From an uncultured Candidatus Saccharibacteria bacterium (GTDB lineage: Bacteria; Patescibacteriota; Doudnabacteria; UBA920): a stretch of DNA of 64,000 nucleotides. Numbering within the stretch: the first letter of the stretch is position 1; each line of letters opens with the position of its first letter. The notes beneath the pieces are model-generated. The model had not been told where the DNA came from. It saw only the letters and a program-made list of their open reading frames with translations, and ran no database searches. A program made the translations under genes and the position numbers. Positions 1 to 48,876 of the stretch are shown here, in pieces. The DNA lies in assembly GCA_964483665.1 (NCBI GenBank), contig CAZACP010000002.1:33171-97170 (forward strand), written 5' to 3'.

Positions 1-600
<600 letters not shown>

Positions 601-8591: not shown

Positions 8592-10151
8592 ATGGAAGAA
8601 ACTTCTTTTTCTTACAAAACCCTAAAGAATTCAAGCTATTTGTTTGCCGGCTTTTTGTTGCCGATGGTTTTTACTATATTCGTTACCAGAGCGTTAGCTC
8701 TCAAATTAGGGAGTGTTGATTTTGGAATTTATTTGTTAGTAAACGCAATAAGTTCATTTGTGGGGTTTGTTGATTTGGGTTTAAGCAGCGCCATAACCAA
8801 ATACGCTTCGGAATATTTAGCTAAGGGTGATATTAAAGCTTTACAAAACTTGTTGGGTTCAGCTAGAAGCTTATTTTTAGCCCTGGGGTTTTTGGGTGTT
8901 TTGGTTTTTGTAGTAATTGGTAAATGGTTCTTGCCTTTATTTCATGTCACGGCCGAAAGTCAGACACATATTTTGATTGTCTTTTTACTTGCTGGAGCGG
9001 CTTTTTTGTTAAATACTTTTGGCTTGGTTTACGGGTCAATTTTAACAGCTTTGCAAAGATTTGATATTTCTACCAAACTTTCTATGACTAGTTTGATAGT
9101 TACAAGTTTGGGCTCGATTTGGCTTTTACAGAATAGTTATCAATTAAAGGCTGTAATGGCCCTTAATGTTTGTGTGATTTTATTTACAATCGTTTTTACA
9201 ATGTATTATTCCAGAAAACTTTTGCCTGATTTGCGATTGAAATTTAGTTTCAACAGGACAGAAATGAAAAAAGCCTACAGTTTTGGTTTTCAGACTTTTA
9301 TTTCAAATTTAGCAGCAAGTTGTTTGCAATATTTGGATCGCTTAATAATCCCATTTTTTTTAGGACCGGCAGTTTTGCCTTTTTATAGTGTGCCGGGTAA
9401 TATTGCGATTAAAATTGTTGGAGTGACCAACAGCCTCTCGGGTATGTTTTTTCCCATGGCTAGCAGTTTGTCAGGTTCGGGAGAAATGGAAAAATTAAAA
9501 CAAATTTACTTAAGAGCTTTTCGAAATTTAAGTGTAGTAGCCGCAGGAACTACAATAGCCATAGTATTATTTGCGCAAAAAATATTAATGTTTTGGCTAG
9601 GTTCTGAGTATGCGGCAAATGGCAGTAAAATCCTGGTAATTTTGGCAATTACTTATTATTTTATTGGACTTTATATACCTTTGCAGAGTATTTTGTTAGG
9701 TTTAGGAAAAATGAAATTTTTAATTCGACAATCTATTTTAATGTCAGCTATAAATCTTACACTGCTGTTAATACTGGTTCCGAAAGCTGGTATTCTGGGA
9801 GCGGCTTGGGCATACCTAATTGCGGTTTTGCCAATGGCTTATGCTTTTTATTGGACCGAGCGTAATATTTTTGGTTTAAAAAATCAGTCATCATTTTACT
9901 TAAAACTCTATCTAAAAATATTTTTAGTAGCTTTTGTAGATGTGTTAATAATATATTTTTTGATAGAGCCCATAACTACCAGTCTATCGTTGTTAGTCAT
10001 CAGTGGGCCATTTTCGGTCGTGTTGTATTTTGTTTTGTATTTTGCTTTTGGTTTTGTAGAAACAGATGATATTTTACTATTTAAAAGTTTTTTTTATAAA
10101 ATTTTTAGAATTAAGAAACCATTATATGAATCAGGCGCCCCAGATAAATAA
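8592..10151 (+). CDS. wzx: Polysaccharide biosynthesis protein / oligosaccharide flippase (Wzx, MOP superfamily)
   Basis: About 14 predicted TM segments across 519 aa. It sits in a glycan locus. Confidence 0.7.
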   Translation: MEETSFSYKTLKNSSYLFAGFLLPMVFTIFVTRALALKLGSVDFGIYLLVNAISSFVGFVDLGLSSAITKYASEYLAKGDIKALQNLLGSARSLFLALGFLGVLVFVVIGKWFLPLFHVTAESQTHILIVFLLAGAAFLLNTFGLVYGSILTALQRFDISTKLSMTSLIVTSLGSIWLLQNSYQLKAVMALNVCVILFTIVFTMYYSRKLLPDLRLKFSFNRTEMKKAYSFGFQTFISNLAASCLQYLDRLIIPFFLGPAVLPFYSVPGNIAIKIVGVTNSLSGMFFPMASSLSGSGEMEKLKQIYLRAFRNLSVVAAGTTIAIVLFAQKILMFWLGSEYAANGSKILVILAITYYFIGLYIPLQSILLGLGKMKFLIRQSILMSAINLTLLLILVPKAGILGAAWAYLIAVLPMAYAFYWTERNIFGLKNQSSFYLKLYLKIFLVAFVDVLIIYFLIEPITTSLSLLVISGPFSVVLYFVLYFAFGFVETDDILLFKSFFYKIFRIKKPLYESGAPDK

Positions 10152-17682: not shown

Positions 17683-18707
17683 AATATTTAATTACTGGAG
17701 GAGCTGGATTTTTAGGATCAAATTTAGCCGCCGAAGTTTTAAAAAGAAAAGAGAAATTAGTCATTTATGACAATCTCTCCCGCATGGGAAGTGAGAAGAA
17801 TTTAGAATGGCTTAAGACCCAAGGTGAGTTTGAATTTTTAAAAGAAACTACCGCAGATTTTAAATCTCTGACTGAAATTTTAAAAAATTTTCAGCCTGAC
17901 GTAATTTTCCATTTGGCCGGCCAGGTGGCAATGACAACATCTATTTTTGACCCACGTAAAGATTTTGAAACCAACGCGTTAGGCAGCTTTAATGTTTTAG
18001 ATGCAGTTAGGCTATACGCACCTAATGCTGCGGTTATTTATTCTTCCACCAACAAAGTCTACGGGGATTTAGAGTATTTGAATTATAAAGAAACCAATAC
18101 CCGTTACGAGCTGACCGATTTCCCGAAAGGACTGCCGGAGTCAGTTAGTTTGGACTTTGCTTCGCCTTACGGCTGCTCTAAAGGCAGCGCGGATCAGTAT
18201 ATGCACGATTTTTACAAAACTTTTAAAGTCAAAACCGTAGTATTTAGGCACTCTTCTATGTACGGGGGCCGCCAGTTTTCTACCTTTGACCAGGGCTGGC
18301 TGGGCTGGTTTTGTGAGCAGGCGGTGTTGTCTAAATTAGGAAAGCTTTCAAAACCCTTCACTATTTCCGGCAATGGTAAACAAGTTCGCGATGTTTTGCA
18401 TTCACAAGATATGGTAGCTTTATATTTTAAAGCAGCAGAAAATATAAGCAGTATTGCCGGAGAAGTTTTTAACATAGGCGGGGGACAAGAAAATAGCTTG
18501 TCTTTAATTGAACTTTTTTCTATTTTAGAAAAACAGCTAGAAGTTAAATTAAGTTTTACCCAATTGCCAACCAGGCAGAGTGACCAAAAAGTTTTTGTGG
18601 CTGACATTGCCAAAGCTAAACGGCTAATTGGCTGGGAGCCTAAAGTTTTGGCAAAAGAGGGTATACGGCAAATGTTGGAATGGGTTAAGAGCATAAACAA
18701 TGAATGA
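17679..18707 (+). CDS. NAD-dependent NDP-sugar epimerase (CDP-paratose/tyvelose 2-epimerase-like)
   Basis: The motifs LITGGAGFLGSNLA and SSTNKVYGDL are present. Confidence 0.6.
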   Translation: MKYLITGGAGFLGSNLAAEVLKRKEKLVIYDNLSRMGSEKNLEWLKTQGEFEFLKETTADFKSLTEILKNFQPDVIFHLAGQVAMTTSIFDPRKDFETNALGSFNVLDAVRLYAPNAAVIYSSTNKVYGDLEYLNYKETNTRYELTDFPKGLPESVSLDFASPYGCSKGSADQYMHDFYKTFKVKTVVFRHSSMYGGRQFSTFDQGWLGWFCEQAVLSKLGKLSKPFTISGNGKQVRDVLHSQDMVALYFKAAENISSIAGEVFNIGGGQENSLSLIELFSILEKQLEVKLSFTQLPTRQSDQKVFVADIAKAKRLIGWEPKVLAKEGIRQMLEWVKSINNE

Positions 18708-21700
18708 AGTTGAAATAAGCGTTGTTATACCAGCCTATTTAGAAGCCGAAAATTTGCGGCTGCTTTTACCGCGTCTTAAAAATATTTTAGCAAAACTATC
18801 TTCCAGTTCTGAAATAGTGGTAGCAGATACGCTAGAGCCAAAAGATGACACTCCTGTGGTATGCAAGGAGCAAGGAGTAGTGTATTTAAATAGGCAAGGC
18901 GGCAATACTTATGGCGATGCTGTAAGAACCGGTATAAAAAATGCCAAAGGTAAATATATTGTCTTTATGGATGCAGACGGTTCTCACGATCCGGAGTTTA
19001 TAGAAAAACTATATGCGGAAAGAACGGCACACGATGTGGTCATAGCCTCTCGCTATGTACAAGGCGGCAATACGGACAATACTTTTATATCAAAGCTTAT
19101 GAGCCTTACGGTTAACAAATTGTTTGCCCTTGGCCTTGGGCTGCCTTATAAAGACGTTTCCAATAGCTTTAAACTCTACAACGCCGAGCAATTAAAAAAT
19201 TTGCAACTCTACTGCAATAACTTTGACATAATAGAGGAAATTTTGTATAAGCTCAAAAAAAATAAGAAAAATTTGTTGGTAAAAGAAATCCCTTTTTATT
19301 TTAAAAAAAGGATTTATGGCGAAACCAAAAGAGAGTTGGTAAAGTTTATATTTTCTTACGCCCGCACAATGTTTCGCCTAAGATTTGGAAATTCTGGCAA
19401 CAAAATGACTAGAATACCCGAGCTTTATAGCAAATTAAAACAGAGTAGTTTTGTTCGGTTCTGCATAGTAGGAACTATAGGCGTTATTACTAACCTGGTG
19501 GTTTTTTATTTAACCAGGCATTACTTAGCCCTTAGTGTAAGCTTAGCTGCTGTTGCTGCTTTTTTGGTCGCAGTTACGCAAAACTACTATTTTAACCACA
19601 AATGGACATTTAGCTTTGACGAGCAATCAAAGCCCAATTTATTTAGTTTTATAAAGTATGCGGGTGTTAACTTGTTTAGTTTGGCTGTTAATTTGATAGT
19701 TACCAACTTAGTCCTGTTTTTTGCGGGCAAAGGCTTTTCTGAAAGCTTGGCCCAGGCTTTTGGCATATTAACCGGGTTTGTTTTAACTTACGTGGGTTCT
19801 TCGGTGTTTATTTTTGCCAAAAAAGACAACCTCTCTTTGCTGTTTAAAGAGCGCTTTGTTATGGCCAACAGGGTTGAATATTTGTTAAAGTTAAAAAATA
19901 ATTTGTTTTATTTTTTTAAAAATGAGTACAAAGTTTTTATAAGTTTTGCCATTTTGTTTTTAGGGCTTTTATATTTAGGGCAAGTAGTTTCGGTGATTGG
20001 CAATAAAACTATTTTACAACCAGTTACTATTGAGGCTTATAATCAAGCCGACCAAAACCCTGAGTCTTTAGAGCGCTTTATGCAGCTTGCGAGGGCTGGT
20101 AACTATACTTTCCTAAAACCCAATTTAGAATCCAAGCAGCCTTGGACAGTCGAAAATGTTTTTTTTAAAAAAGTCCTGGTTGGAATGAGTGAAAAAGACC
20201 TTAAAACTTTAAAAGTCATTTCGGTAAAAATAGGTAATTCTGATTTCGCATATACTCAAGATGAATTTCTAGATTCTTGGAACAGTGTTGACCTAAATCT
20301 TTTAAAAGGCAATTTGTCCGGAAAGGAAGATGTAGATTTTAAGTTGTTTGAATCTCCGGAAGCTTTAAGCCTGCCAAAGTCGCACATTCCTGTTTACAAA
20401 AGTTTTTTTGGCAGCATAATAAACTGGGGAGGGGACAGTACTTTGTTTTTAAAACCCCTGAAAAATGCTTTAGGGGCTTGGGTTTTGGTTTTGTTTTTGA
20501 CTATTTTTATAAGGGTTGTTTATTTAATCGTGCGAAATAGTAGTTTTTTAGAGAGCCATGAACAAGAAGAGTTAAGAAAATACATAGCTTTTAGTTTAAG
20601 TATATATACCAGTGTTTTTTGTTTGCTTTTGTTAAATATTTTTTTAAAGCTTTTTTACAAGCCCAATACCGCGGGTATTTTGTCGCAAGCAAAACTAGAC
20701 TACGTTAATTACTTTTTCAAATCTATAAGGCCAAAGCCGGTTGAAAGGCTTCAGTTTGTCCTAAGCACAGTTTTGTCGCCGTTTTTGGTTTATTTTTCTT
20801 ACTTATGGTTTGAAAAGAAAAATTTTTTTTCTAAAGCTTTGTACAAAGTCCTTTTCTTTTTTAACCTATTTTTGTTTGCCAGTGTTATTTATTTAGGTTT
20901 GGCTGTGAGCGGTTTCTTTTTTGTCAGAGATAGTTTTTTTGCAGGCTTTTACTTCCGCTATGTGTATGCTTTAATTTTATTTCCGCTGTGCTTTGTGTTT
21001 TTGTATTACAAAAATCCGCCTAAGAGCGTACTATTATTTTTAAAGCTTCTTGGGCTTTTGGCAGTTGTGACAGTATTTAGTTTGGGAATAGTTAATTTAT
21101 TTGACGGGTATTTGCCCTTAGATTTAGACCCGGTAATTTACCCGCAAATTCAAGTATTGTCCGGTAAAAATTTACTCGCGCCGGTTACCAGTTTTTATGG
21201 CCTTTACGCGTTTTTCCTACAGCCCATTTTTAAACTAATTGGCTTTTCGGTTTTAAAATTTTCTTTAGTAATGTCCAGCTTAATGCTATTAAGTTTTTGG
21301 TTTTTGAAAAAAATGTTAAGACGCGCAGTAGAGAACACCACCATTTATTTATTAGGTTTTCTTGCTATAGTTTTTTACACTGTGTTAGCTACAAGAACAA
21401 TGCCGGAATACTATTTTCAGTATTGGCCAATTCGTTTTATATTTCCAGCTTTAGGTTTTTACCTAATTACCTGGTATTTAAAAAATAAAAGTCAGTTAGC
21501 TTATTTTTTCGGAATTTTGCTTAGTGCAATTGGAGTTTTGTGGAATTTAGATGTTGGTCTTGTTTTGTTTATAGCTCTCATGGCAACTTTAATTTTAGAT
21601 GCTTGGTGTGGTAAACAAAACATAAAAGATTTTTTTAAAAAGACATTTTGGCATATAGTTTACGGAGCGCTCGGTTTAATTTTAGTAGTAGGCTTTTTTG

Positions 21701-22527
21701 CAGAAGTTACTCATTTACAAAGTGGTATGTGGCCAGACGTAGCTCTGCTTTTGCGCTATCAAAAGTTGTTTGTTTCAGGCTACCTAAATATTCCTATGGT
21801 TCCACCCCCACATACTTGGACTGTAGTTTTACTTGTTTATTTAATTGGCCTTATAAGTGTAGCTAAAGACTTAGTAAAAAAAGAAGTTACTTACCAAAGC
21901 AAAATTATTTTTTTTAGTGGTATTTTAGGCCTTGGTTTGTTTGCTTACTACGAAGGGCAGTCGAGCGACATAACTTTGTTCCGTACTTCTTACCCTGCGC
22001 TTATAATTGTTATTATGTTTGTTGACAAGCTTTGGACAGAGCTTAAAGCCAAGGGACAATTAATTTTTGGTAAATTTGTAATTCTTAGTTTTTTGTTATT
22101 TGTCCTTTTTTCCGTACCGTTTAGTTTAATAGCTAACTTAGGTAGTTACTACGTTTTTGCTAAAGACGCTGTAAAGAATATTCAGCTTAAAGACTCTAGC
22201 TATTTAAGGAATGTAAAGTTTATAAAACAAAATACTCAACCAAACGAACGAGTTTTTATATTGGCCAGTCCGCAGCAAGGGGTTTACTACACAGAAAGCA
22301 AAACTTTGCCGGTAGTAACTGTGGCTTCGGTCGCGGATATAGTTTTTCCCAAAGACTTGGATGTCCAATATAATTTTTTACAGACCAATAAGGCCACAAA
22401 AGTTTTTGCATTAATGCCTTTGGAAAACTATGATAAATTTGACCCGCGGCTTAAAAAAATTATTATGGAGCAATACAAACAAGTTTTAAAGTCCGAAGAT
22501 GGAATGGTATACTTTTTACCCAAATAA
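18700..22527 (+). CDS. 1275-aa fusion: GT2 polyprenyl-phosphate sugar synthase (GtrB/DPM1-like) + GtrA-like 4-TM domain + large polytopic GT-C-like domain with a C-terminal soluble domain
   Basis: Residues 1-230: VVIPAYLEAENL...DADGSHDP. Around residues 245-370: FVRFCIVGTIGVITNLVVFYL (GtrA family). Residues 380-1275 carry more than 20 hydrophobic segments. Confidence 0.7.
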   Translation: MNEVEISVVIPAYLEAENLRLLLPRLKNILAKLSSSSEIVVADTLEPKDDTPVVCKEQGVVYLNRQGGNTYGDAVRTGIKNAKGKYIVFMDADGSHDPEFIEKLYAERTAHDVVIASRYVQGGNTDNTFISKLMSLTVNKLFALGLGLPYKDVSNSFKLYNAEQLKNLQLYCNNFDIIEEILYKLKKNKKNLLVKEIPFYFKKRIYGETKRELVKFIFSYARTMFRLRFGNSGNKMTRIPELYSKLKQSSFVRFCIVGTIGVITNLVVFYLTRHYLALSVSLAAVAAFLVAVTQNYYFNHKWTFSFDEQSKPNLFSFIKYAGVNLFSLAVNLIVTNLVLFFAGKGFSESLAQAFGILTGFVLTYVGSSVFIFAKKDNLSLLFKERFVMANRVEYLLKLKNNLFYFFKNEYKVFISFAILFLGLLYLGQVVSVIGNKTILQPVTIEAYNQADQNPESLERFMQLARAGNYTFLKPNLESKQPWTVENVFFKKVLVGMSEKDLKTLKVISVKIGNSDFAYTQDEFLDSWNSVDLNLLKGNLSGKEDVDFKLFESPEALSLPKSHIPVYKSFFGSIINWGGDSTLFLKPLKNALGAWVLVLFLTIFIRVVYLIVRNSSFLESHEQEELRKYIAFSLSIYTSVFCLLLLNIFLKLFYKPNTAGILSQAKLDYVNYFFKSIRPKPVERLQFVLSTVLSPFLVYFSYLWFEKKNFFSKALYKVLFFFNLFLFASVIYLGLAVSGFFFVRDSFFAGFYFRYVYALILFPLCFVFLYYKNPPKSVLLFLKLLGLLAVVTVFSLGIVNLFDGYLPLDLDPVIYPQIQVLSGKNLLAPVTSFYGLYAFFLQPIFKLIGFSVLKFSLVMSSLMLLSFWFLKKMLRRAVENTTIYLLGFLAIVFYTVLATRTMPEYYFQYWPIRFIFPALGFYLITWYLKNKSQLAYFFGILLSAIGVLWNLDVGLVLFIALMATLILDAWCGKQNIKDFFKKTFWHIVYGALGLILVVGFFAEVTHLQSGMWPDVALLLRYQKLFVSGYLNIPMVPPPHTWTVVLLVYLIGLISVAKDLVKKEVTYQSKIIFFSGILGLGLFAYYEGQSSDITLFRTSYPALIIVIMFVDKLWTELKAKGQLIFGKFVILSFLLFVLFSVPFSLIANLGSYYVFAKDAVKNIQLKDSSYLRNVKFIKQNTQPNERVFILASPQQGVYYTESKTLPVVTVASVADIVFPKDLDVQYNFLQTNKATKVFALMPLENYDKFDPRLKKIIMEQYKQVLKSEDGMVYFLPK

Positions 22528-22554
22528 CCAAAATTATTAATTGTAATAAATAGT

Positions 22555-22707
22555 ATGCACTATATTTGTACCGGCGGATGTAAAGGAGTTTCCGAAACTC
22601 CCGGCACTTGCCAAGCTAAAGACTGCCCTTTGTATGGTCACGAGCTTCAGCCTTGCGACTGCACAGACGGAAAACATTACGGTAAGCAAGACGAAAAAGC
22701 CGAATAA
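22555..22707 (+). CDS. Small Cys-rich protein (50 aa, 6 Cys), hypothetical
   Basis: Translation is MHYICTGGCKGVSETPGTCQAKDCPLYGHELQPCDCTDGKHYGKQDEKAE. It lies between the giant GT gene and its own terminator, and was not in the ORF track because it is shorter than 60 aa. Confidence 0.35.
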   Translation: MHYICTGGCKGVSETPGTCQAKDCPLYGHELQPCDCTDGKHYGKQDEKAE

Positions 22708-22720
22708 GCAAAACTCACTA

Positions 22721-22750
22721 AAAGCAAGGCCAAAAACCCTTGCTTTTTTG
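22721..22750 (+). terminator. Rho-independent terminator
   Basis: Hairpin gcaagg/ccttgc followed by a T-run. Confidence 0.55.
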
Positions 22751-22855
22751 TATGTTTTATGATATATTATAACGTCGCCCCAATTGCCATAAAGGGCGAA
22801 TTTGATGCGGCACTCGCATCATAGGTTTGGCAAAAAAGACCCCAGGAGGTGGGGA

Positions 22856-23608
22856 ATGGATTGGAAAGATAGACTGAAAAAGGAAAAATGGGTGGAGGGA
22901 AGGCTTATTTATTTTCACCCTTCCTCTTACCGCCACCGAGTGGTGGTGGTATGCTATGAACTTGGTCGTCAGAAAGCCGAGTTCTCAAATGGCACTCTCA
23001 ACTACGGTGCGTATGTTGAACTGTGTCGCCCGGATGGTACCTGGATCCGGGAAGGAGTCAACGTCGTGCCGGTTTTACCGGACGGCCGTATCGTTATGGT
23101 TGTTGAACAACGCCCCGCTCAATTTGCTTATGGAGACTGTCCTTCTCAGATTGAGACAGAAGGGCACAAGGCAATGGATTTGGAGAAATTTGGCCCCTAC
23201 AGCTCCTTGGAGTTTCCGGGAGGTGGTGTGGACGCGGATCAAAATTTCCATGCCGCTTTTCTTGCCGAACTAATCGGAGAAACAGGACTCGAAGATCAGA
23301 CCGCAACACTGATCACGCGGGAACCGTATTTCTATCCGGCGGGTGCGGACGTCGCTCTTCGTTCTAAGCAAGCTGTAATTTACCTGACTGGGATGAAGTT
23401 TGAAGGTTATGTGAACGATGACGGCGGTCTGCATGTCTTGGCATTGAGTCCTTATGACATTCTCCGTAATATCCGCACCGGTGCTTTGGCTTCGTCGCAG
23501 ACCGTGCTCTTGCCGTGGTATTTCTACCAGGAGTTACAAAATTCAGATACATCGGCTCTCGAAAAGACCGGGTACATCTCTCGTAAGGAGGTGAAGATCA
23601 AAAAGTAG
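22856..23608 (+). CDS. NUDIX hydrolase, carried on a GC-rich islet
   Basis: A strong RBS AGGAGGTGGGGA precedes the ATG. A Nudix-box-like region EFPGGGVDADQNFHAAFLAELIGETGL is present. GC content jumps well above the surroundings. Confidence 0.6.
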   Translation: MDWKDRLKKEKWVEGRLIYFHPSSYRHRVVVVCYELGRQKAEFSNGTLNYGAYVELCRPDGTWIREGVNVVPVLPDGRIVMVVEQRPAQFAYGDCPSQIETEGHKAMDLEKFGPYSSLEFPGGGVDADQNFHAAFLAELIGETGLEDQTATLITREPYFYPAGADVALRSKQAVIYLTGMKFEGYVNDDGGLHVLALSPYDILRNIRTGALASSQTVLLPWYFYQELQNSDTSALEKTGYISRKEVKIKK

Positions 23609-23641
23609 GAAAGTATGAGGAGGAAAGGAGACAAGTAGCAT

Positions 23642-23708
23642 AAAGCGCTGGAAGTACGTTAGTTGTGCCCGAGTCGACGGCGGCACAAAGGACAGACTTT
23701 CAGCGCTT
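23642..23708 (+). terminator. Long GC-rich hairpin, probable terminator of the NUDIX gene
   Basis: Arms aagcgctggaagt / actttcagcgctt, with an inner gtgcc/ggcac stem around a gtcgac palindrome. Confidence 0.45.
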
Positions 23709-23859
23709 CTTTCAATGGTGGAAATAGCTCTTTCTTTTTTGTTTATTTTCTGGTAATCTAAACCACAGATACGCAAATTATCATAAATCACACAGATTTA
23801 AAAAATCAAACAAATATCTGCGTTATCTGCTTTTATCTGTGTATCTGTGGACTAAAAAT

Positions 23860-25140
23860 ATGAGTTCAAAATACCCCTCGCATCACGATATAAAAACCGG
23901 TTACATAAACTATTGCCAAATTTGTAATTCCCAAAAACTCCATACTATTTTAGACTTAGGCCACCAGCCTTTATGCGACACTTTGCTTACCCAAAAATCT
24001 TTAAACGAACCGGAAAAAACTTATCCTTTAAGGATGATCTGGTGTGAAAATTGCACAGGCGTGCAAATTGACTATTGTGTAGACGGCAGCGAAGTTTATC
24101 ACCCGGACTATCCATACAAAAGCGGGGTGACTAAAGAATTGGTAGAGTACCAAGTTAAAATTGGCCAGGGGCTTATAAAAAAGTTTAATTTAAAAGAAGG
24201 TGACTTGGTTATAGATGTAGGTTCCAACGACGGCACGCTTTTAAGCGGCTTTAAAGGCACAGGCATAAAAACTGTTGGCATAGAGCCTACCAACATAGCA
24301 AAACTTGCAAACCTTGCAGGCATAGAAACTGTTCAGGCATTTTTTAATATAGAAACTTCAGAAAAAGTTAAAGAAAAATACGGACAAGCCAACGTAATAG
24401 TTACAACCAATACTTTTGCTCATATGCAAGGATTGGGTGAATTTATAATGGGCGCTTACAATTTGCTTAAAGATGGCGGGGTGTTTGTTTCTGAAACCCA
24501 TTATTTACTAGACGCGCTCCAAGGCGGACAGTTCGATACTATTTACCACGAGCATTTAAGAACTTATTCTTTGCATAGCTTAATAGCGTTGTTCGACCAA
24601 TATGACTTTACCGTGGTAGATGTAGAAAGAGGGGAACGTTATGGTGGCAATATTCGTGTTTATGCAGCGAAAGGTAAGGGTAAAGAAGTTAGCCAAGCGG
24701 TTACTGACTTGCTTAAAAAAGAAAAAGAAGCGGGTTTGGACAAAATCGAAACTTACACTAAATTTGCCGACCGAGTAAAGAAAGCGCGACTTGAATTTGT
24801 AGACTTTTTAATAAAAGCAAAAAAAGAAGGTAAGAGCATTGTTGGGAACTCTTGTCCGGGCAGGTCGAGCACTTTACTTAACTACTACGGTATAGATACA
24901 GAACTTTTGCCTTACTTAGCCGAGCAGCCACAGTCCCTAAAACTTGGAATGTATTTACCGGGTAAGCATATACCAGTGGTAAACAACCAACGCTTAATAG
25001 ACGAACAACCAAATTATGTAGTTTTGCTGGCTTGGCACTATGCCAAACCTATAATGCAGCAGCTAAAAGCGCGAGGGCTTAAATCGGACTTTATAATTCC
25101 TTTACCTGAATTTACAATTGTAAAAAATTCCGAAGTATAA
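23860..25140 (+). CDS. NDP-hexose C-methyltransferase (TylCIII/Methyltransf_13-14 family)
   Basis: The N-terminal zinc-ribbon CQICNSQ...LGHQPLCDTL...YPLRMIWCENCTGVQI is present, followed by a class-I SAM MTase region. The track starts at a GTG (23839); the first ATG is 23860. Confidence 0.65.
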   Translation: MSSKYPSHHDIKTGYINYCQICNSQKLHTILDLGHQPLCDTLLTQKSLNEPEKTYPLRMIWCENCTGVQIDYCVDGSEVYHPDYPYKSGVTKELVEYQVKIGQGLIKKFNLKEGDLVIDVGSNDGTLLSGFKGTGIKTVGIEPTNIAKLANLAGIETVQAFFNIETSEKVKEKYGQANVIVTTNTFAHMQGLGEFIMGAYNLLKDGGVFVSETHYLLDALQGGQFDTIYHEHLRTYSLHSLIALFDQYDFTVVDVERGERYGGNIRVYAAKGKGKEVSQAVTDLLKKEKEAGLDKIETYTKFADRVKKARLEFVDFLIKAKKEGKSIVGNSCPGRSSTLLNYYGIDTELLPYLAEQPQSLKLGMYLPGKHIPVVNNQRLIDEQPNYVVLLAWHYAKPIMQQLKARGLKSDFIIPLPEFTIVKNSEV

Positions 25141-29163: not shown

Positions 29164-29319
29164 ATAAACATTATGAGAGAGTATGGTATAAATCCTGAAG
29201 AAGTGGAAAAAATAAAAAGCCATATCAAGCAATTGTGGTAATGCCGTATAGTTCTGGTGAGTATGTATGGGGCAGGAGGTCGAAAATAAGTCCTAACTTA
29301 TGAGTCAAAATTATCTGCG

Positions 29320-29682
29320 TTGGCCGCGTATCAAGCCTTTAAGGAAGGAAAAGCTGATAAAATAATTCTTACGGGAGAAAGCACTGTCGGGGCACCTGAA
29401 TATTCAACTACAGATTTTTTAAAAGAGTTTCTTGTTTCTAAGGGGGTGCCGGGTTCTTCGATTGAGGTATATAGCAATCTGCAAAACTCAGCGGAACAGT
29501 TGCAGAAGATTAAGGAGGTTCAAGGGCAAAATGATAAATTTTTAATTATATCTTTAGGCTTTCATACAAAAAGGGTCAAGGTGATATCAGATAGCGAAGA
29601 GATACAAGCTGAGCATCAAGTAGCTGAAGATTTACTTAAAAAACGCAATAAGAAATATGAAGGAATAATGCAATTGGAATAA
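29320..29682 (+). pseudogene. DUF218/YdcF-like domain fragment (TTG start, N-terminally truncated); probable gene remnant
   Basis: AAYQAFKEGKADKIILTGES resembles the central DUF218 motif. Only 120 aa remain. Upstream at 29174-29300 there are short out-of-frame ORFs. Confidence 0.3.
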
Positions 29683-40832: not shown

Positions 40833-41825
40833 ATGTTGTATTTATATTTAGGGGCGGATGATTTTACGAAAAAACAGAAAATTGACTCTTTGGTTAAAGA
40901 AAAAAGGGCGGAGTTAGTCGTGTTTGGAGAGGGCGATGAAACACCAAAAGTTCAGGATTTAATAGCAACAGATTTATTCTCAAAGCCAAAGGTTTTTGTT
41001 CTTAGTCTCCCTCCCCCTTTGGGGGAGGGTAAGGGAGAGGGTGTATTGATTATTGACAAATTAATATTATCTTCCAACCACATAGTTATTTCAACTATTT
41101 CTTTAGACAAGCGAAAAAAAGAAAACAAGGATATATTGCTAAACAAAAAAATAATAGTAAAGGAATTTATTTTGCCTCACGGCCAAGAGCTTGATAAATG
41201 GATTTTAGAAAGAGTCTTGTTGCTTGGCGGAAAAATGTCAAAAGACGCGGCAAACCAATTGGCCGTGCGGTTAGGCCGGGACGAAGCAAAAGAAACTAAA
41301 TTTGGCGGTAAAGTGGTAAGCACCGAAGAAGTTTTTAGCTTATGGCAAGCGGACAGTGAAATTAAGAAATTAATAGCTTATTCAGGCGGACGAGAAATAA
41401 CAAAAGAAGATGTAATAGAATTAGTTTCGGAAAATGGGGAGGTCGATGCTCTGCAAATAACTAACGCTCTTGCGGACAAGAACAAGGAACTCTCATTTTT
41501 GCTAATACAAAAGTTTTTAAAAGAACAAACGGCAAGCGACGAAAAAGGCAGCATAATTCAACTAAACGCGCTACTTTCTGAGCAGTTTAGGAACGTGGCA
41601 ATCACGCAGGATTTTGCAAATAGAAAAACAAATGAGGCGGAAATTTTGGAAAAAACCGGGTGGAAAAGCGGAAGGCTTTTTGTAATGAAGAAAATTTCCG
41701 ACAGATTCGACCAGGCTAAAGTAGTGGAAACTTTAAGCAAATTAGCCAGTTTAGACGAGGAAATTAAGACTTCCCAAATGCCGCCAAGAGTGCTGCTCGA
41801 GCTTATTTTGGGGCAATTGTTTTAG
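40833..41825 (+). CDS. holA: DNA polymerase III delta subunit-like protein
   Basis: The N-terminus LYLYLGADDF matches the delta-subunit opening pattern, and the length is about 330 aa. The gene contains an in-frame GC-rich palindromic insert at 41027-41063. Confidence 0.45.
   Translation: MLYLYLGADDFTKKQKIDSLVKEKRAELVVFGEGDETPKVQDLIATDLFSKPKVFVLSLPPPLGEGKGEGVLIIDKLILSSNHIVISTISLDKRKKENKDILLNKKIIVKEFILPHGQELDKWILERVLLLGGKMSKDAANQLAVRLGRDEAKETKFGGKVVSTEEVFSLWQADSEIKKLIAYSGGREITKEDVIELVSENGEVDALQITNALADKNKELSFLLIQKFLKEQTASDEKGSIIQLNALLSEQFRNVAITQDFANRKTNEAEILEKTGWKSGRLFVMKKISDRFDQAKVVETLSKLASLDEEIKTSQMPPRVLLELILGQLF
41027..41063. repeat. GC-rich palindromic element (copy 1) inside the holA-like CDS
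   Basis: ccctccccc-ttt-gggggaggg followed by taagggagagggtg. It encodes LPPPLGEGKGEG in-frame. Confidence 0.65.
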
Positions 41826-41931
41826 TTGTAACAGTTTAGAGATTATTGCGTTATATTATGTGGTATAATAAATATAAGTATTAATTGCCTAATAAATCGC
41901 AAATTAGCGAAAGGGCAGGAGACAAAAATAA

Positions 41932-42984
41932 ATGAATAACAAGATGCTTAAAATTGCAGCGAGCGCTGCAATTTCCGCCGGACTTATTTTTCCGGCATTT
42001 TCAGCATTAGCTGTTACATCCCAAGAATTACAAGGAAAAATATTGGGCATTCAGACTTCAATGAAAGAACAGTCTGAATCGTACAAAAAAGAAATGGAAC
42101 AGAAGCGCGAAGAGCTTAAAGATTTAATGGAAGCCAAGGCTGAATCTTATAAGAAGGAAATGGAAAGCAAGCGAGAAGAGTTAAAGAAGTTGTCGGAAGA
42201 AAAAAAAGAAGCTTTGAAAAAAGAAGCCGAAAGCAAGAGAGAAGAGCTGAAGAAGAAAGCGGAAGAACAGAAAGAGGCTTTAAAAATTTGTAAGCAGCAG
42301 AATAAAGATGTAAATGAAGATTATTCTGAAGCTGCCAAAGTTGCCAGGGAAGTTCGCTCGGAAGCGTTAAAAAAAGCCAGGGAGACCAGGCAGACTGAGT
42401 TAAAAACTGCTTTAGAAACAAGAAAAGCGGCTCGCGCCCAGGTAATTGGCACTAGTACCACCACTAACAGTACCTTAAAAGCCACAAGAAACGCTGCTAT
42501 TGAAACTGCTAAGAATACCAGAAAAACTGAAATTGAAGCCGCTAAAACCGTACTTAATAATGTATTAAATGCAAGTTCAACCCCGGAAAGCATTGCCGCT
42601 GCTAAGGTTGCTTACGAAGCTGCGGTTAAAGCTGCGAACCAAAAGTACGAAGCTGCGGTAAAAGCGGCTAATGAAGCCTATAAAGCAGCTGCAGGCACAA
42701 GCGCAGATTCTTATAAAGAAGCAATGAAAGATGCTAACGAAGCATATGCGGAGGCGGTTAAAGCGGCTAATGAAAAATATAATGCTGCGGTAAAAGCGGC
42801 TAATGAAGCCTATAAAGCAGCTACAAAAACAGCCGGCGAAACTAGAAAGTCAAATATAAAAAATTGCACAACCTCGGGAAATTCAACTTCTACACCTCCC
42901 TCTACAACCCCGACACCTACGCCGACTCCTTCGCCCACAGTCACTCCAACTCCAACCCCTACAGCCACCCCGACCCCCACCTAA
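41932..42984 (+). CDS. Secreted repetitive protein (signal peptide, coiled-coil repeats, AAVKAANEAYKAA repeats, C-terminal Pro/Thr-rich tail)
   Basis: The signal peptide MNNKMLKIAASAAISAGLIFPAFSALA is present. Tandem repeats at the DNA level span 42060-42300 and 42600-42830. The C-terminal tail reads TPTPTPTPSPTVTPTPTPTATPTPT. Confidence 0.6.
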   Translation: MNNKMLKIAASAAISAGLIFPAFSALAVTSQELQGKILGIQTSMKEQSESYKKEMEQKREELKDLMEAKAESYKKEMESKREELKKLSEEKKEALKKEAESKREELKKKAEEQKEALKICKQQNKDVNEDYSEAAKVAREVRSEALKKARETRQTELKTALETRKAARAQVIGTSTTTNSTLKATRNAAIETAKNTRKTEIEAAKTVLNNVLNASSTPESIAAAKVAYEAAVKAANQKYEAAVKAANEAYKAAAGTSADSYKEAMKDANEAYAEAVKAANEKYNAAVKAANEAYKAATKTAGETRKSNIKNCTTSGNSTSTPPSTTPTPTPTPSPTVTPTPTPTATPTPT

Positions 42985-43327
42985 GCTAGCTTTAAAAACT
43001 CCCTTGCTATCTGCCCGCCAAAGTTATTCCAAAATACCTAATAGGACAAATAACACAGATAAAATACGTCTAGAGAGTATTTAATCTGTGGGATCAAGTG
43101 GTATTAGTGAATTTATGGTTAAAAACCTTGGCAGGCAGTTTACCCAGCACCTTTCTTTGTGAACTTAAACTTCCCAGGAATTAAATCTCAATAATTATTT
43201 TGGAATAATAGTTTAGGAGATTTTGAAAGGTGCTGGGTTTAGCAGGGGAGTTTTTGTTTGTTTTTTATTTAAATCCCAGCCAGCATTAGGGGGGATTTTT
43301 TGGTATAATTATTCCAAGGAGGGCCTA

Positions 43328-46301: not shown

Positions 46302-48152
46302 ATGAACAAAACAATATCAATTAACTTAGGCGGCAGAAACTTTTTTATAGAAGAAGATGCCTATAAAAAACTGGACGAATATTTAAAAGCCATAAAATTG
46401 CGTTTTGCAGAATACGCGGGAAGCGAGGAAATTGTGGCAGATATGGAAAGCAGAATCGGTGAAAAGTTTACAGACAAGTACGAGGGCAAGACACAGGCGG
46501 TTATAACTTTGGGCGATGTAGACAGCCTGATTTTAGAACTTGGCAGCGTGGACGACATTGCGGGCGACGACCCTTCGACAAGCTCAGGACCTAGCGGGGT
46601 CGAGAGAAGGAATAATAACTATAATAACGACAAAACATCATTCGCGCCTAAACGGCTTATGCGTAATGGGGAAGACAAAATTATTGCCGGCGTTGCTTCG
46701 GGGTTAGCCGCGTATTTTGACGTAGACCCGATTATTTTTAGGGCTCTATTTGTAATTTTGCTGTTTGCCTGGGGAACTATGATCCCTATTTATTTGGTTT
46801 TATGGCTTATAATGCCTGAGGCTAAAACTCTCACTGAAAAAATGCAAATGCGCGGCCAGGCGCTAAATTTAGACAACATAGGCGAAACCATAAAAGAGAG
46901 GGCAGAGGAATTTAAGGCTCACATTAACGGGGTAAAAAACAAAGAAGAGTGGAAAGAATGGGGCAAGAAGGCAAAAGCGGATGTAAAAGCCGTGGGGGAA
47001 GACATAAAACAAAGCGCGCAAAGTATGGGACGGGAAGCGGGCGAAGTTAGTAAAAAAAAAGCCCAAGGGCTAGCTAATTTTTTGCGCCAAATTTTTCAGG
47101 GTTTAGGAAGGCTAATTGCCTTTGTATTTATACTGCTTCGCAGAGTAGTCAGCTTTGCGTTAATTGCGGCGTTTGGTCTTGCCATAGCCGGCCTGACTCT
47201 GGCTTTTGTTACCGCAGTTTTTAATGTAACTTCGCCTTACGTATTTTTGCCCATTGCCGGCATAGCACATACGGCGCCGTTCTATGTTTTGCTTATAGCC
47301 GCGTATGTTTTGGCTTTTGTGCCCATTTTGCTTTTACTGCTTTTGGCAGTCAGCCTGTTTAACCTTAAGTCCGCGTTTAAGCCGGCTTTGGGCTTTAGCT
47401 TGTTTGGGGTTTGGGTCATAGCTTTGGCAATAGGCGGAGCGGTAGGTGCCCGCTATGCGCCTGCCTATGTGGAGCAAATAAAAAACAGCCCCGAGCTTAA
47501 AACTACAACTAAAAGTTTTAATGTTAGCGAATTTGAAAATTTAGATTTGGGAAGTTCGGTAGAGTACAGGCTTACGCAGGGGAGTGAATATAAAATTGAG
47601 GCAGAAGGCTGGAACATAGACCTAGAAAGGCTAAGCGCCAACGTTTCAAACAAAACATTGGTGGTGGAAAAAACAAATAAAAACTTTTGCATATTTTGCC
47701 TAAGCGGCAGGCCAAAAGTTACCATAACCGCGCCCGGCTTTGTTAATATTCGAGCGACCAACTCTTCTACCGTCAACTCCGAAGCTATTGTGGCCACCTC
47801 TACAACACTAAGCCTTGCCAACTCTTCCCGCGCGAACATTAATTTTACTGTTAGCGAGCTAATTTTAAATTTAAGCAATTCCAGTTCCGCGAATTTGTCC
47901 GGCAGCGCAAATTTAATGACCGCTAAGTTAAGCAACTCTTCGCGCCTTTATGGAGAAGATTTAAATATAAAAAACGCGGGTATTACCGCGTCTAACTCTT
48001 CGGTTGCCAATGTAAACGTGAGCGAAAAGTTATACTACAATACTTCTAACTCCAGCCGGATTTATTACACCGGCAGTCCGCAAATAATTACTGAACAAGA
48101 AGAAAGTTTCAAATTGCCGAAAATTCCCGAAACTCCAATAATAATAAATTAA
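46302..48152 (+). CDS. PspC-domain membrane protein with a C-terminal DUF4097/DUF2807 beta-helix (putative adhesin-like) region
   Basis: The PspC domain reads EDKIIAGVASGLAAYFDVDPIIFRALFVILLFAWGTMIPIYLVLWLIMP. The C-terminal repeats read NSSRANINF...NSSSANLSGSANLM...NSSVANVNVS. Confidence 0.7.
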   Translation: MNKTISINLGGRNFFIEEDAYKKLDEYLKAIKLRFAEYAGSEEIVADMESRIGEKFTDKYEGKTQAVITLGDVDSLILELGSVDDIAGDDPSTSSGPSGVERRNNNYNNDKTSFAPKRLMRNGEDKIIAGVASGLAAYFDVDPIIFRALFVILLFAWGTMIPIYLVLWLIMPEAKTLTEKMQMRGQALNLDNIGETIKERAEEFKAHINGVKNKEEWKEWGKKAKADVKAVGEDIKQSAQSMGREAGEVSKKKAQGLANFLRQIFQGLGRLIAFVFILLRRVVSFALIAAFGLAIAGLTLAFVTAVFNVTSPYVFLPIAGIAHTAPFYVLLIAAYVLAFVPILLLLLLAVSLFNLKSAFKPALGFSLFGVWVIALAIGGAVGARYAPAYVEQIKNSPELKTTTKSFNVSEFENLDLGSSVEYRLTQGSEYKIEAEGWNIDLERLSANVSNKTLVVEKTNKNFCIFCLSGRPKVTITAPGFVNIRATNSSTVNSEAIVATSTTLSLANSSRANINFTVSELILNLSNSSSANLSGSANLMTAKLSNSSRLYGEDLNIKNAGITASNSSVANVNVSEKLYYNTSNSSRIYYTGSPQIITEQEESFKLPKIPETPIIIN

Positions 48153-48165
48153 AATGAATACAGCG
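48039..48165. repeat. Direct repeat copy 1 (3' end of the PspC-domain gene plus its terminator hairpin)
   Basis: About 90% identical to 48705-48829. Confidence 0.75.
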
Positions 48166-48209
48166 TGCTCGTAACTGGTACGAGCGCGCTGTAGAAAGCG
48201 TTTTGGGAG

Positions 48210-48704: not shown

Positions 48705-48829
48705 AATACTTCCAACTCCAGCCGGGTTTACTACACCGGTAGCCCGGAAATAATTACAGAAGAAGAAAGTTTCAAATTGCCGGAAATTCCCGAAACGCCA
48801 ATAATAATAAATTAAAATGAATACAGCGC
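48705..48829. repeat. Direct repeat copy 2 (orphan duplicate of the gene 3' end; encodes ...SNSSRVYYTGSPEIITEEESFKLPEIPETPIIIN*)
   Basis: Aligned by eye to copy 1. It carries a 3-nt in-frame deletion and about 10 substitutions, and is followed by its own GC-rich hairpin. Confidence 0.75.
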
Positions 48830-48876
48830 GCTGCCTTGGGGGCGGCGCGCTGTTATGGCGAGTCGTCGAGCGGTGC

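Follow-up and report, generated by a model that had tools for sequence, protein, structure and literature searches.

We analysed a 64,000-nucleotide stretch of contig CAZACP010000002.1 (assembly GCA_964483665.1), referred to here as the window, from an uncultured bacterium of the Patescibacteria. It carries a gene for a Nudix-fold protein (hereafter NUDIX) that stands out as a GC-rich islet among AT-rich glycan genes. The gene order, which is conserved in relatives, is a family 2 glycosyltransferase (GT2)–GtrA fusion, NUDIX, a C-methyltransferase (C-MT), an oxidoreductase of the GFO/IDH/MocA family (GFO), a DegT homologue and a further GT2. A preliminary description had read the islet as horizontally acquired DNA. 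Comparison with orthologous loci leads us to favour, with moderate confidence, a different explanation: a long-resident monocistronic NUDIX unit, the GC-richness of which is a property of the gene family and not the mark of a recent import. Such a unit would run from an upstream terminator with an embedded −35 element through a structured leader, a Shine–Dalgarno sequence (SD) in a hairpin loop and the 250-amino-acid Nudix protein to a long terminator hairpin (Table 1). It would be a conserved accessory of glycan loci for cytidine diphosphate (CDP)- or other nucleoside diphosphate (NDP)-hexoses in Patescibacteria.

Table 1. Features of the NUDIX unit and its immediate surroundings, in window coordinates (ORF, open reading frame; CDS, coding sequence).
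Feature	Coordinates	Strand	Description
Cys-rich 50-aa ORF	22555..22707	+	Left-hand shoulder of the GC rise; GC 0.477
Intrinsic terminator of the Cys-rich ORF	22720..22753	+	AAAAGCAAGG-N8-CCTTGCTTTT, then T-run
Putative NUDIX promoter	22740..22768	+	−35 TTGCTT at 22740–22745, 17-nt spacer, −10 TATATT at 22763–22768
GC-rich 5′ leader	22769..22855	+	Small hairpins visible; GC 0.495 over 22765–22855
SD-displaying hairpin	22840..22854	+	CCCCA-GGAGG-TGGGG with the SD in the loop; −8.5 kcal/mol
NUDIX CDS	22856..23608	+	250-aa two-domain Nudix-fold protein, NudF/NudK-like
Purine-rich tract	23617..23631	+	GAGGAGGAAAGGAGA, right behind the stop codon; pairable with a pyrimidine tract past the hairpin
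Long 3′ hairpin and T-rich tail	23643..23745	+	AAGCGCTGG...GTGCC-loop-GGCAC...CAGCGCTT; hairpin 23643–23708
Imperfect palindrome with TATCTGYG repeats	23763..23850	+	35-nt arms; leader/promoter region of the C-MT gene
NDP-hexose C-MT	23860..25140	+	Pfam Methyltransf_13/23/14; first gene of the downstream sugar-modification operon

The abrupt GC switch that had first drawn attention to the islet is real: in 300-nt windows, GC content is 0.45–0.52 over 22650–23700 and 0.31–0.36 on either side. The islet had been placed at 22800–23710, and its right edge stands, whereas its left edge has to be moved: the GC-rich stretch begins at about 22555 and holds two GC-rich genes, the Cys-rich ORF and NUDIX, split by an AT-rich terminator/promoter spacer (GC about 0.50 over 22555–23710, compared with about 0.34 in the flanks). 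With a GC content of 0.498 and a third-position GC content (GC3) of 0.518 (window gene means of 0.381 and 0.366), the NUDIX CDS ranks second of 55 window ORFs by GC (z = 2.9). Part of this contrast is due to the neighbours, because the flanking glycan genes are unusually AT-rich (0.30–0.39) compared with housekeeping genes elsewhere in the window (BipA, G6PD, DEAD-box helicase, MsrA and PilB-type ATPase; 0.41–0.46). About half of the excess reflects amino-acid composition, as the protein sequence predicts a GC content of 0.441 (window mean 0.381), and the remaining half is synonymous (+0.058). The compositional lift also reaches the leader and the 3′ untranslated region (UTR; GC 0.50), whereas most other intergenic DNA in the window has a GC content of 0.18–0.38.

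Codon usage and dinucleotide signature depart from those of the host in the same stretch. Among isoleucine codons, ATC makes up 0.64 in NUDIX compared with 0.06 in the host, and ATA 0.00 compared with about 0.40; the fractions of TTC (0.40 versus 0.11) and CTC (0.22 versus 0.03) are likewise raised. Measured by δ*, Karlin's dinucleotide signature distance normalised for base composition, the islet lies at the 99th percentile of 900-nt windows. The relative abundance (ρ) of GA/TC is 0.72–0.75 in the host and 1.17 in the NUDIX gene, and that of the dinucleotide GC is 1.47–1.49 and 0.79, respectively. By these single-genome criteria (GC step, codon use and δ*) alone, the inference of foreign DNA would stand, and a weak, T-rich 33-nt direct repeat (D1, 76% identity) that flanks the unit could be added in favour of an islet recently acquired by this genome.

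The host signature is an observation in its own right. Across the whole window and most related loci, GA/TC is depleted (ρ of 0.68–0.80 in the closest loci), the GC dinucleotide is over-represented (1.35–1.65) and AA/TT is enriched, a pattern visible as near-avoidance of the codons ATC (0.06), CTC (0.03) and TTC (0.11). Avoidance of GATC or restriction sites was rejected as the cause of the GA/TC depletion, because GATC is not specifically avoided (observed/expected ratio of 1.04). The highest δ* in the window (200–218) is found at 41400–42984, with an AT skew of 0.376, where a 350-aa ORF of skewed composition (41932–42984) has no Pfam match.

Orthologues alter the meaning of these signals. 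The homology search that the preliminary description had proposed for the NUDIX protein returns at least 108 homologues, and the 19 genome loci among them are labelled as metagenome-assembled genomes (MAGs) of Patescibacteria or the candidate phyla radiation (CPR), bar three recorded only as ‘bacterium’. In the related loci (designated by L-numbers) L006, L003 and L008, with NUDIX proteins 74%, 54% and 53% identical to that of the window, the gene is followed by the C-MT, the GFO/IDH/MocA oxidoreductase and a DegT/RfbH-like enzyme, with a GT2 closing the series in L006 and L003; in L001 (61%), NUDIX lies directly 5′ of DegT and GT2. Its divergence resembles that of its neighbours: between the window and L006 the neighbours are 52–89% identical, and NUDIX identity lies inside the neighbours' range in four comparisons. 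The pairwise divergence of NUDIX correlates with that of adjacent pathway genes (rho of 0.34–0.62).

The GC excess is shared by all of these relatives. In 22 of 22 loci (37–75% identity), NUDIX is richer in GC than the remainder of the locus (+0.013 to +0.179, mean of +0.10; P = 6 × 10−5, Wilcoxon test), and it is the GC-richest ORF in 13 of 20. According to the names of four MAGs, genome GC contents are 34, 43, 39 and 46%; the gene has 46, 55, 50 and 51% there. Averaged over loci, the GC profile has the shape of a box, with a gene core at +0.11 to +0.14 (+0.15 to +0.20 in the closest clade) and flanks within about 0.03 of the baseline, except for −0.06 in the 100 nt just 5′. Gene GC follows host GC (r = 0.57) with a constant positive offset. 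The dinucleotide deviation is similarly general: in 21 of 21 loci the gene exceeds its host in ρ of TC/GA, and in 20 of 21 it falls below it in ρ of GC.

Turnover at synonymous sites is complete. At conserved residues, the codon identity between the window and L006, L003 and L008 is 0.44, 0.33 and 0.35, and codon usage alone predicts 0.39, 0.35 and 0.32. Because synonymous sites are saturated and the GC lift is nonetheless kept in each lineage, the composition is that of a maintained equilibrium and not the remnant of an import; and because a non-host-like signature is also found in the orthologues of 21 of 21 hosts, it is not diagnostic of recency here. The preliminary description had named host-like codon usage, combined with uniform read coverage, as a finding that would speak against acquisition. 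Usage and k-mer signature are truly non-host-like, but they are so throughout the family, and the import reading does not hold for a recent event. Together with the same position in L006, L003 and L008, the neighbour-like divergence and the GC excess in every locus, this leads us to set aside the claim of horizontally acquired DNA, and we regard a recent acquisition in this genome as very unlikely.

The surroundings of the islet contain little that would mark an insertion. No tRNA, integrase or transposase gene lies beside it, the only tRNAs in the window being at 40.3–40.8 kb. A search of the flanks gave only the low-complexity D1 repeat and nothing convincing, and D1 consists of the T-rich tails of two terminators. 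Viral contigs contained no NUDIX homologues, and a viral route of transfer was rejected on this ground. Elsewhere in the window, a direct repeat of about 130 nt (48039–48169 and 48705–48832; 87–90% identity, spacing of about 665 nt) duplicates the 3′ end and stop codon of a PspC/DUF2807 gene and brackets or precedes GC-rich DNA (0.46–0.555), with minus-strand ORFs that lack a Pfam match and show non-host codon usage. The segment 48039–49215 looks like a genuine insertion or duplication, with the hallmark of flanking repeats that the NUDIX islet lacks. 

A chimeric assembly, in which the DNA of two organisms was joined at the GC boundaries, is suggested by the abruptness of the shift and by nothing else. 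An independent contig from the Joint Genome Institute (JGI; L025) is 99.94% identical over 22122–23723, across the left boundary, and extends about 15 nt past the 3′ hairpin; the same junctions are conserved in L006, L003 and L008, assemblies from other studies. Misassembly, a possibility raised in the preliminary description, can in our view be dismissed as next to impossible.

The transcriptional and translational signals around the gene recur in relatives. The terminator said to lie upstream is present (22720–22747, a 10-bp stem followed by a T-run), and a GCAAG...CTTGC-TTTTTT hairpin is found just 5′ of NUDIX in L006, L001 and L003, with a CAAGG...CCTTG-ATTTTTT variant in L008. The putative promoter of the NUDIX unit was read from the sequence; a consensus scan made no call there and the −35 is weak. 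It includes a TG at 22760–22761, and its −35 sits inside the 3′ arm of the terminator, an embedding seen in five loci. The layout of TTGCTT, 17 nt and TATAAT or TATACT also occurs in L006 and L001, and a weaker −10 or variant −35 in L003 and L008. An extended SD (AGGAGGTG, 22844–22851) is separated by four bases from the ATG at 22856, which we take as the start of NUDIX; the TTG at 22802 in the ORF list lies 5′ of the ribosome-binding site. The site had been called strong and atypical for the neighbourhood, and the pairing of the SD with the anti-SD indeed ranks first of 52 ORFs (−15.1 kcal/mol; median of −4.1, next best −11.7), with every other ORF scored at its best candidate start. It is the strongest SD in 13 of 20 loci. 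The stem of the hairpin that displays it covaries: GCCCA/TGGGC in L006, GTTCCA/TGGAAC in L001, TCCCA/TGGGA in L008 and CCCA/TGGG in L019.

Downstream, purine-rich tracts comparable to that behind the window stop codon occur in L006, L001, L003 and L008; a small ORF behind this SD-like tract was rejected, because the frames differ between the window and L006. The long GC hairpin of the preliminary description lies at 23643–23708 with 27-nt arms, and the surrounding RNA folds at −45.7 kcal/mol (z = −3.97 versus shuffled sequences). It occurs once per locus, solely directly after NUDIX and solely in the closest clade, and compensatory changes are seen in 3 of 24 pairs. It is probably a terminator or 3′ stabiliser of the NUDIX mRNA. 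Two other origins were considered for it and rejected: a dispersed repeat or miniature inverted-repeat transposable element, given the single occurrence per locus and only behind NUDIX, and an integron attC site, given the lack of GTTRRRY/RYYYAAC ends, the absence of an integrase and the single cassette.

Inverted repeats had also been reported in the next spacer, and they form the palindrome of Table 1 (CCACAGATAC...GTATCTGTGG; RNA fold of −25 kcal/mol, z = −6.1 versus shuffled sequences), which lies outside the NUDIX unit. Its TATCTGYG motif occurs six times in the window (1.66 expected), four of them inside the palindrome and the others at 29312–29319, directly 5′ of an ORF at 29320, and at 43054–43061. 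L006 and L003 have no conserved counterpart of the palindrome in the corresponding spacer; the motif may represent an operator or a leader structure. In the window as a whole, Rfam at gathering thresholds detects two tRNAs only, and an E-value search of 22500–23900, which covers leader, 3′ hairpin and palindrome, gave an implausible best match (E = 0.67).

If the gene is a long-term resident, its composition has to be maintained. We propose that a persistent force, GC-favouring and erasing the host signature, would act on this transcription unit alone, atop an AT-biased host background. Since the effective number of codons (Nc) is what GC3 predicts, GC3 differs little between conserved and variable residues and ORFs with a similar codon index are not ribosomal, the force would be compositional and gene-wide. 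It could be selection on the transcript or the DNA of a gene that needs strong expression: because the SD is exceptionally strong and conserved and the promoter/terminator architecture is insulated, expression-linked selection on the transcription unit appears to us the most likely force.

The familiar form of such a force would be classic translational selection, which favours optimal codons in highly expressed genes. In most of 21 loci, the gene favours ATC, AAC, TAC, GAC and TTC and avoids TTA, AGA and ATA; codon families with A or T at the first two bases shift more than others; the SD is strong; and 9 of the 10 highest-ranking of 344 ORFs on a composite codon index are NUDIX orthologues. 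Against it, the Nc plot leaves no bias once GC3 is allowed for, NUDIX uses its codons more evenly than the neighbours do and has AAG and GAG raised as well, GC3 is not concentrated at conserved residues (+0.03 in one reckoning), and the look-alike ORFs are not genes for ribosomal proteins or elongation factors. We consider this explanation hardly credible, slightly less so even than a recent import.

Several results weigh against the reading that we favour, some of them the very ones that exclude codon selection. The Nc of the window gene is 59.9 compared with 60.5 expected from GC3; Nc minus expectation is −4.4 for 21 orthologues and −4.3 for 302 other ORFs (P = 0.89); and GC3 is 0.556 at conserved and 0.512 at variable residues. 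The non-NUDIX ORFs with the same codon index encode a DDE transposase, radical-SAM/SPASM enzymes, an epimerase and unknowns, and within the window codon look-alikes occur only in the repeat-flanked GC-rich segment at 48.1–49.2 kb. As a transposase and that segment share the codon signature, it also marks DNA that is probably foreign. Co-divergence with the neighbours is modest, and all NUDIX loci were recovered with the NUDIX protein as the query. A scan with the C-MT as its anchor found 80 loci without NUDIX in which RfbF-like, RfbG-like, C-MT and GFO genes are present; the gene is thus dispensable for the pathway, an accessory, and a gain at some point in its history is certain. The scan yielded no strict empty site, as those loci differ in operon layout and are at most 76% identical.

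In two distant loci, the gene keeps different company: L020 (6408–8602) and L021 (6186–8677 and 11245–11550) have NUDIX in a multi-gene GC-rich block with radical-SAM/SPASM enzymes of the same codon signature.

Some of these observations are shared by a rival in which the self-contained unit is recurrently replaced in situ, or moved among Patescibacteria, from a higher-GC and more neutral pool. In almost all hosts, the gene departs from the host in codon use and dinucleotide signature, its composition is neutral (Nc of about 60, ρ of about 1), as expected of a mixed pool, and gene GC rises with host GC at a regression slope of about 0.5. The transposase and the repeat-flanked insert carry the same signature, C-MT-anchored loci without the gene exist, and the conserved boundaries of the unit could be recombination anchors. 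What tells against recurrent exchange is the fixed position, with divergence commensurate with that of the neighbours in five lineages, and the lack of recent transfers among 22 loci, where synonymous sites are saturated and the top identity is 75%. The offset is positive in all 22 loci, those of the GC-richest hosts included; in signature, the gene lies closer to the host that carries it than to the others (δ* of 130 versus 157), and NUDIX genes are no more alike in signature than their hosts are (129 versus 122). Viral copies are lacking, as are mobility genes beside the unit. With the position conserved, the offset positive throughout and the host partly imprinted on the gene, exchange from a GC-richer pool is the less parsimonious reading, and we judge it unlikely, if the strongest of the competing explanations.

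GC-biased gene conversion at a recombination hot spot, with the gene as a homologous anchor for the swapping of flanking glycan cassettes, would account for a lift without codon-specific bias. Variable glycan blocks lie on both sides of the gene, and the window, L006 and L003 each have something different in the slot 5′ of it; all three codon positions and the UTRs show the rise in GC, which is even over conserved and variable residues. Conversion tracts should blur the edges, yet GC returns to within about 0.03 of the baseline no more than 100 nt from the gene ends. The adjacent C-MT is more conserved (82–89%) and would be the better anchor, yet has a GC content of 0.39, and the Cys-rich gene stays GC-rich at another position in L006. 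We think this quite improbable. As neither codon selection nor regional gene conversion fits, the maintenance of NUDIX GC would need another cause.

The protein itself was assigned by structure and by family profile. The window sequence scores 20.1 bits with Pfam PF00293, below the gathering cut-off of 21.1 and over residues 135–182 only; most homologues have a precomputed PF00293 match, and a family profile search recovers MutT (E = 6 × 10−7) as well as NudF/NDPSase (nucleoside diphosphate sugar hydrolase) and NUDT5 sequences. An AlphaFold2 (AF2) model (predicted local distance difference test score, pLDDT, of 91.2; predicted template modelling score, pTM, of 0.86) gave 238 matches at E ≤ 1 × 10−3 against the Protein Data Bank (PDB) in Foldseek, and the 50 listed are all of the Nudix family. 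The top matches are 5c7q, 3o52 and 1g0s (E of about 10−9, template modelling (TM) score to the target of 0.65–0.75, 12–17% identity). The predicted structure has the α–β–α sandwich of the Nudix fold.

The Nudix box (scored as G-x5-E-x7-R-E-U-x-E-E-x-G-U) is a variant in the window. Its sequence at G123–L145, G123-x5-Q-x7-A-E-L-I-G-E-T-G-L, keeps G1N, E16N, U17N, E20N, G22N and U23N (E138 and E142 among them) and has Q129, A137 and G141 in place of E7N, R15N and E19N. With three box residues substituted and a score below the Pfam gathering threshold, catalysis is not assured. The L006 copy has the same Q/A/G variant, and a similar triple substitution appears again in another subgroup; the box is fully canonical in 65 of 109 family members. 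A non-catalytic Nudix protein, whether a ligand-binding regulator such as NrtR or an activator such as Bacillus methanolicus ACT, would be in keeping with these replacements, with ACT being among the top structural matches and with the precedent that some Nudix proteins bind substrates without hydrolysing them (PMC4629899). Retention of E16N in 108 and E20N in 107 of the 109 sequences, along with the canonical box in most members, argues otherwise. Searches of the window protein against Pfam and NCBIfam detected no helix-turn-helix (HTH) family, and its C-terminal helices align with the α2/α3 region of NudF-type proteins, not with a winged helix. We accord the non-catalytic reading a low probability. 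Outside the box, the window protein deviates at only one position among columns that are at least 85% conserved; it is under constraint, and catalysis is a prediction from fold and neighbourhood.

Two characterised groups offer the closest comparison. The best structural matches are NDPSases, Bd3179 of Bdellovibrio (PDB 5c7q/5c7t) and the E. coli guanosine diphosphate (GDP)-mannose hydrolase YffH/NudK (3o52/3o61). NDPSases are defined by an Asp-x-Lys motif on helix α3, about 65 residues after G22N, and have an N-terminal β-sheet domain before the Nudix fold and a domain-swapped dimer, and ADP-ribose pyrophosphatases have a diagnostic proline 15 residues after G22N (PMC4629899). The window protein resembles NDPSases in having a predicted N-terminal β domain followed by a Nudix fold (strands at residues 17–57 of the monomer model, with alignments to 5c7q and 3o52 that span about 220 columns), in its genomic tie to nucleotide-sugar metabolism and in a family strand, VPVLPdGrllMVvEQRP, that aligns with IPLLPNGNVVMIHQYRH of 5c7q. 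It differs from them in its low identity (12–17%), in being about 60 residues longer with a larger N-terminal domain, in an insertion at about 87–115 and an extra C-terminal strand, and in its variant box. None of 106 scorable sequences has a D-x-K within G22N+55 to +75; its position is taken by a conserved S-G-Q within a family motif, N-I-x-x-G-x-I-x-S-G-Q-A-A-L. With ADP-ribose pyrophosphatases (E. coli NudF 1g0s/1ga7, K. pneumoniae ADPRase and human NUDT5), the family shares the fold class, the domain order and a conserved proline shortly after the box. This proline is at G22N+13 or +14 in 104 of 106 sequences and at +15 in two (P157 at +13 and F159 at +15 in the window protein), and the genomic context is CDP/NDP-hexose and not NAD or ADP-ribose metabolism. 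The absence of D-x-K and the proline at +13/+14 place the family on a distinct branch outside both characterised groups. By these sequence features it is an uncharacterised NudF/NudK-like Nudix subfamily of Patescibacteria with its own specificity motif; a literature search for this Nudix family in CPR/Patescibacteria found nothing relevant.

Gmm/WcaH/NudD is a GDP-mannose mannosyl hydrolase, a Nudix enzyme of colanic-acid and O-antigen clusters, and probably adjusts the supply of nucleotide sugars, a role of the kind that the preliminary description had suggested for NUDIX. It is small, has a single Nudix domain with an altered box and cleaves at C1 of the sugar, and its gene sits within an operon. 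The window Nudix protein is like it, by description, in being encoded inside a polysaccharide cluster, and unlike it in belonging to an insulated monocistronic unit. As a stand-alone, terminator-bounded transcription unit of deviant composition, the NUDIX unit also recalls the ‘morons’ of phages and genomic islets; unlike these, it is chromosomal, is conserved in position across deeply diverged lineages, is deviant in all of them and has neither mobility genes nor viral homologues.

The neighbouring genes point to a sugar pathway. They score best as glucose-1-phosphate cytidylyltransferase (RfbF-like), CDP-glucose 4,6-dehydratase (RfbG-like) and an RfbH-like dehydrase, all below the equivalog cut-offs, and are accompanied by a thiamine pyrophosphate (TPP)-dependent enzyme, the C-MT and glycosyltransferases. 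Homologues of the cytidylyltransferase and/or dehydratase, C-MT or DegT lie within 10 kb of NUDIX in about 17 of 21 loci, with the order and orientation of the NDP-hexose genes around it varying among loci. Taken with the fold match, this supports the earlier suggestion that a NUDIX enzyme beside an NDP-sugar pathway may act on the NDP-sugar pool. From fold and neighbourhood, the protein is most likely a hydrolase that would cleave a nucleotide-sugar, whether a CDP-hexose, a related NDP-sugar or ADP-ribose, to a nucleoside monophosphate and a sugar phosphate, and could thereby clear or recycle intermediates of the adjacent pathway.

The genes on either side merit brief description. The C-MT probably starts at ATG 23860 and not at the GTG 23839 of the ORF list, as the N-terminus from this ATG fits the MxxxYPxHH of orthologues (L006 and L003) and the GTG lies within the palindrome. 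The slot 5′ of NUDIX varies: in the window it is filled by the Cys-rich ORF, in L006 by a gene for a HAD-family phosphatase (9066–9719) and in L003 by one for a second Nudix protein, canonical and of 154 aa (9459–9923), which hints at a small module of nucleotide and sugar-phosphate hydrolases. The Cys-rich protein (MHYICTGGCKGV...CDCTDGKHYG) has no Pfam or NCBIfam match and only 11 homologues, all small; the one in L006 (1752–1904) is located elsewhere in the glycan locus and has a GC content of 0.49, compared with 0.35 in its flanks. Further upstream, 18700–22527 encodes a 1,275-aa fusion protein with a GT2 glycosyltransferase at its N-terminus, together with a GtrA-like domain and a membrane region that is polytopic and very long; its orthologue in L006 has 1,040 aa and is 52% identical.

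For this gene, the single-genome tests for foreign DNA (GC step, codon usage and k-mer signature) were all positive and yet misleading, and only the comparison of orthologues revealed a family trait. The family emerges as an uncharacterised NudF/NudK-like Nudix subfamily that appears to be tied to CDP/NDP-hexose glycan loci and to have a conserved, unusually strong expression architecture, and it raises the question of what keeps the GC of one gene, not a housekeeping one, about 10 points higher than that of its genome throughout a radiation. A more far-reaching version, to which we give little credence although slightly more than to a non-catalytic role, is an insulated cassette that selection keeps GC-rich and clear of the host signature for strong constitutive expression inside AT-rich, fast-exchanged glycan islands, encoding an abundant, hitherto uncharacterised subfamily of pyrimidine (CDP)-sugar pyrophosphatases central to nucleotide and sugar-phosphate recycling. 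If this were true, single-gene GC islands could be used to spot accessory genes of strong expression from sequence alone in uncultivated bacteria with AT-rich genomes, and the enzyme would be central to recycling in the salvage-dependent Patescibacteria.

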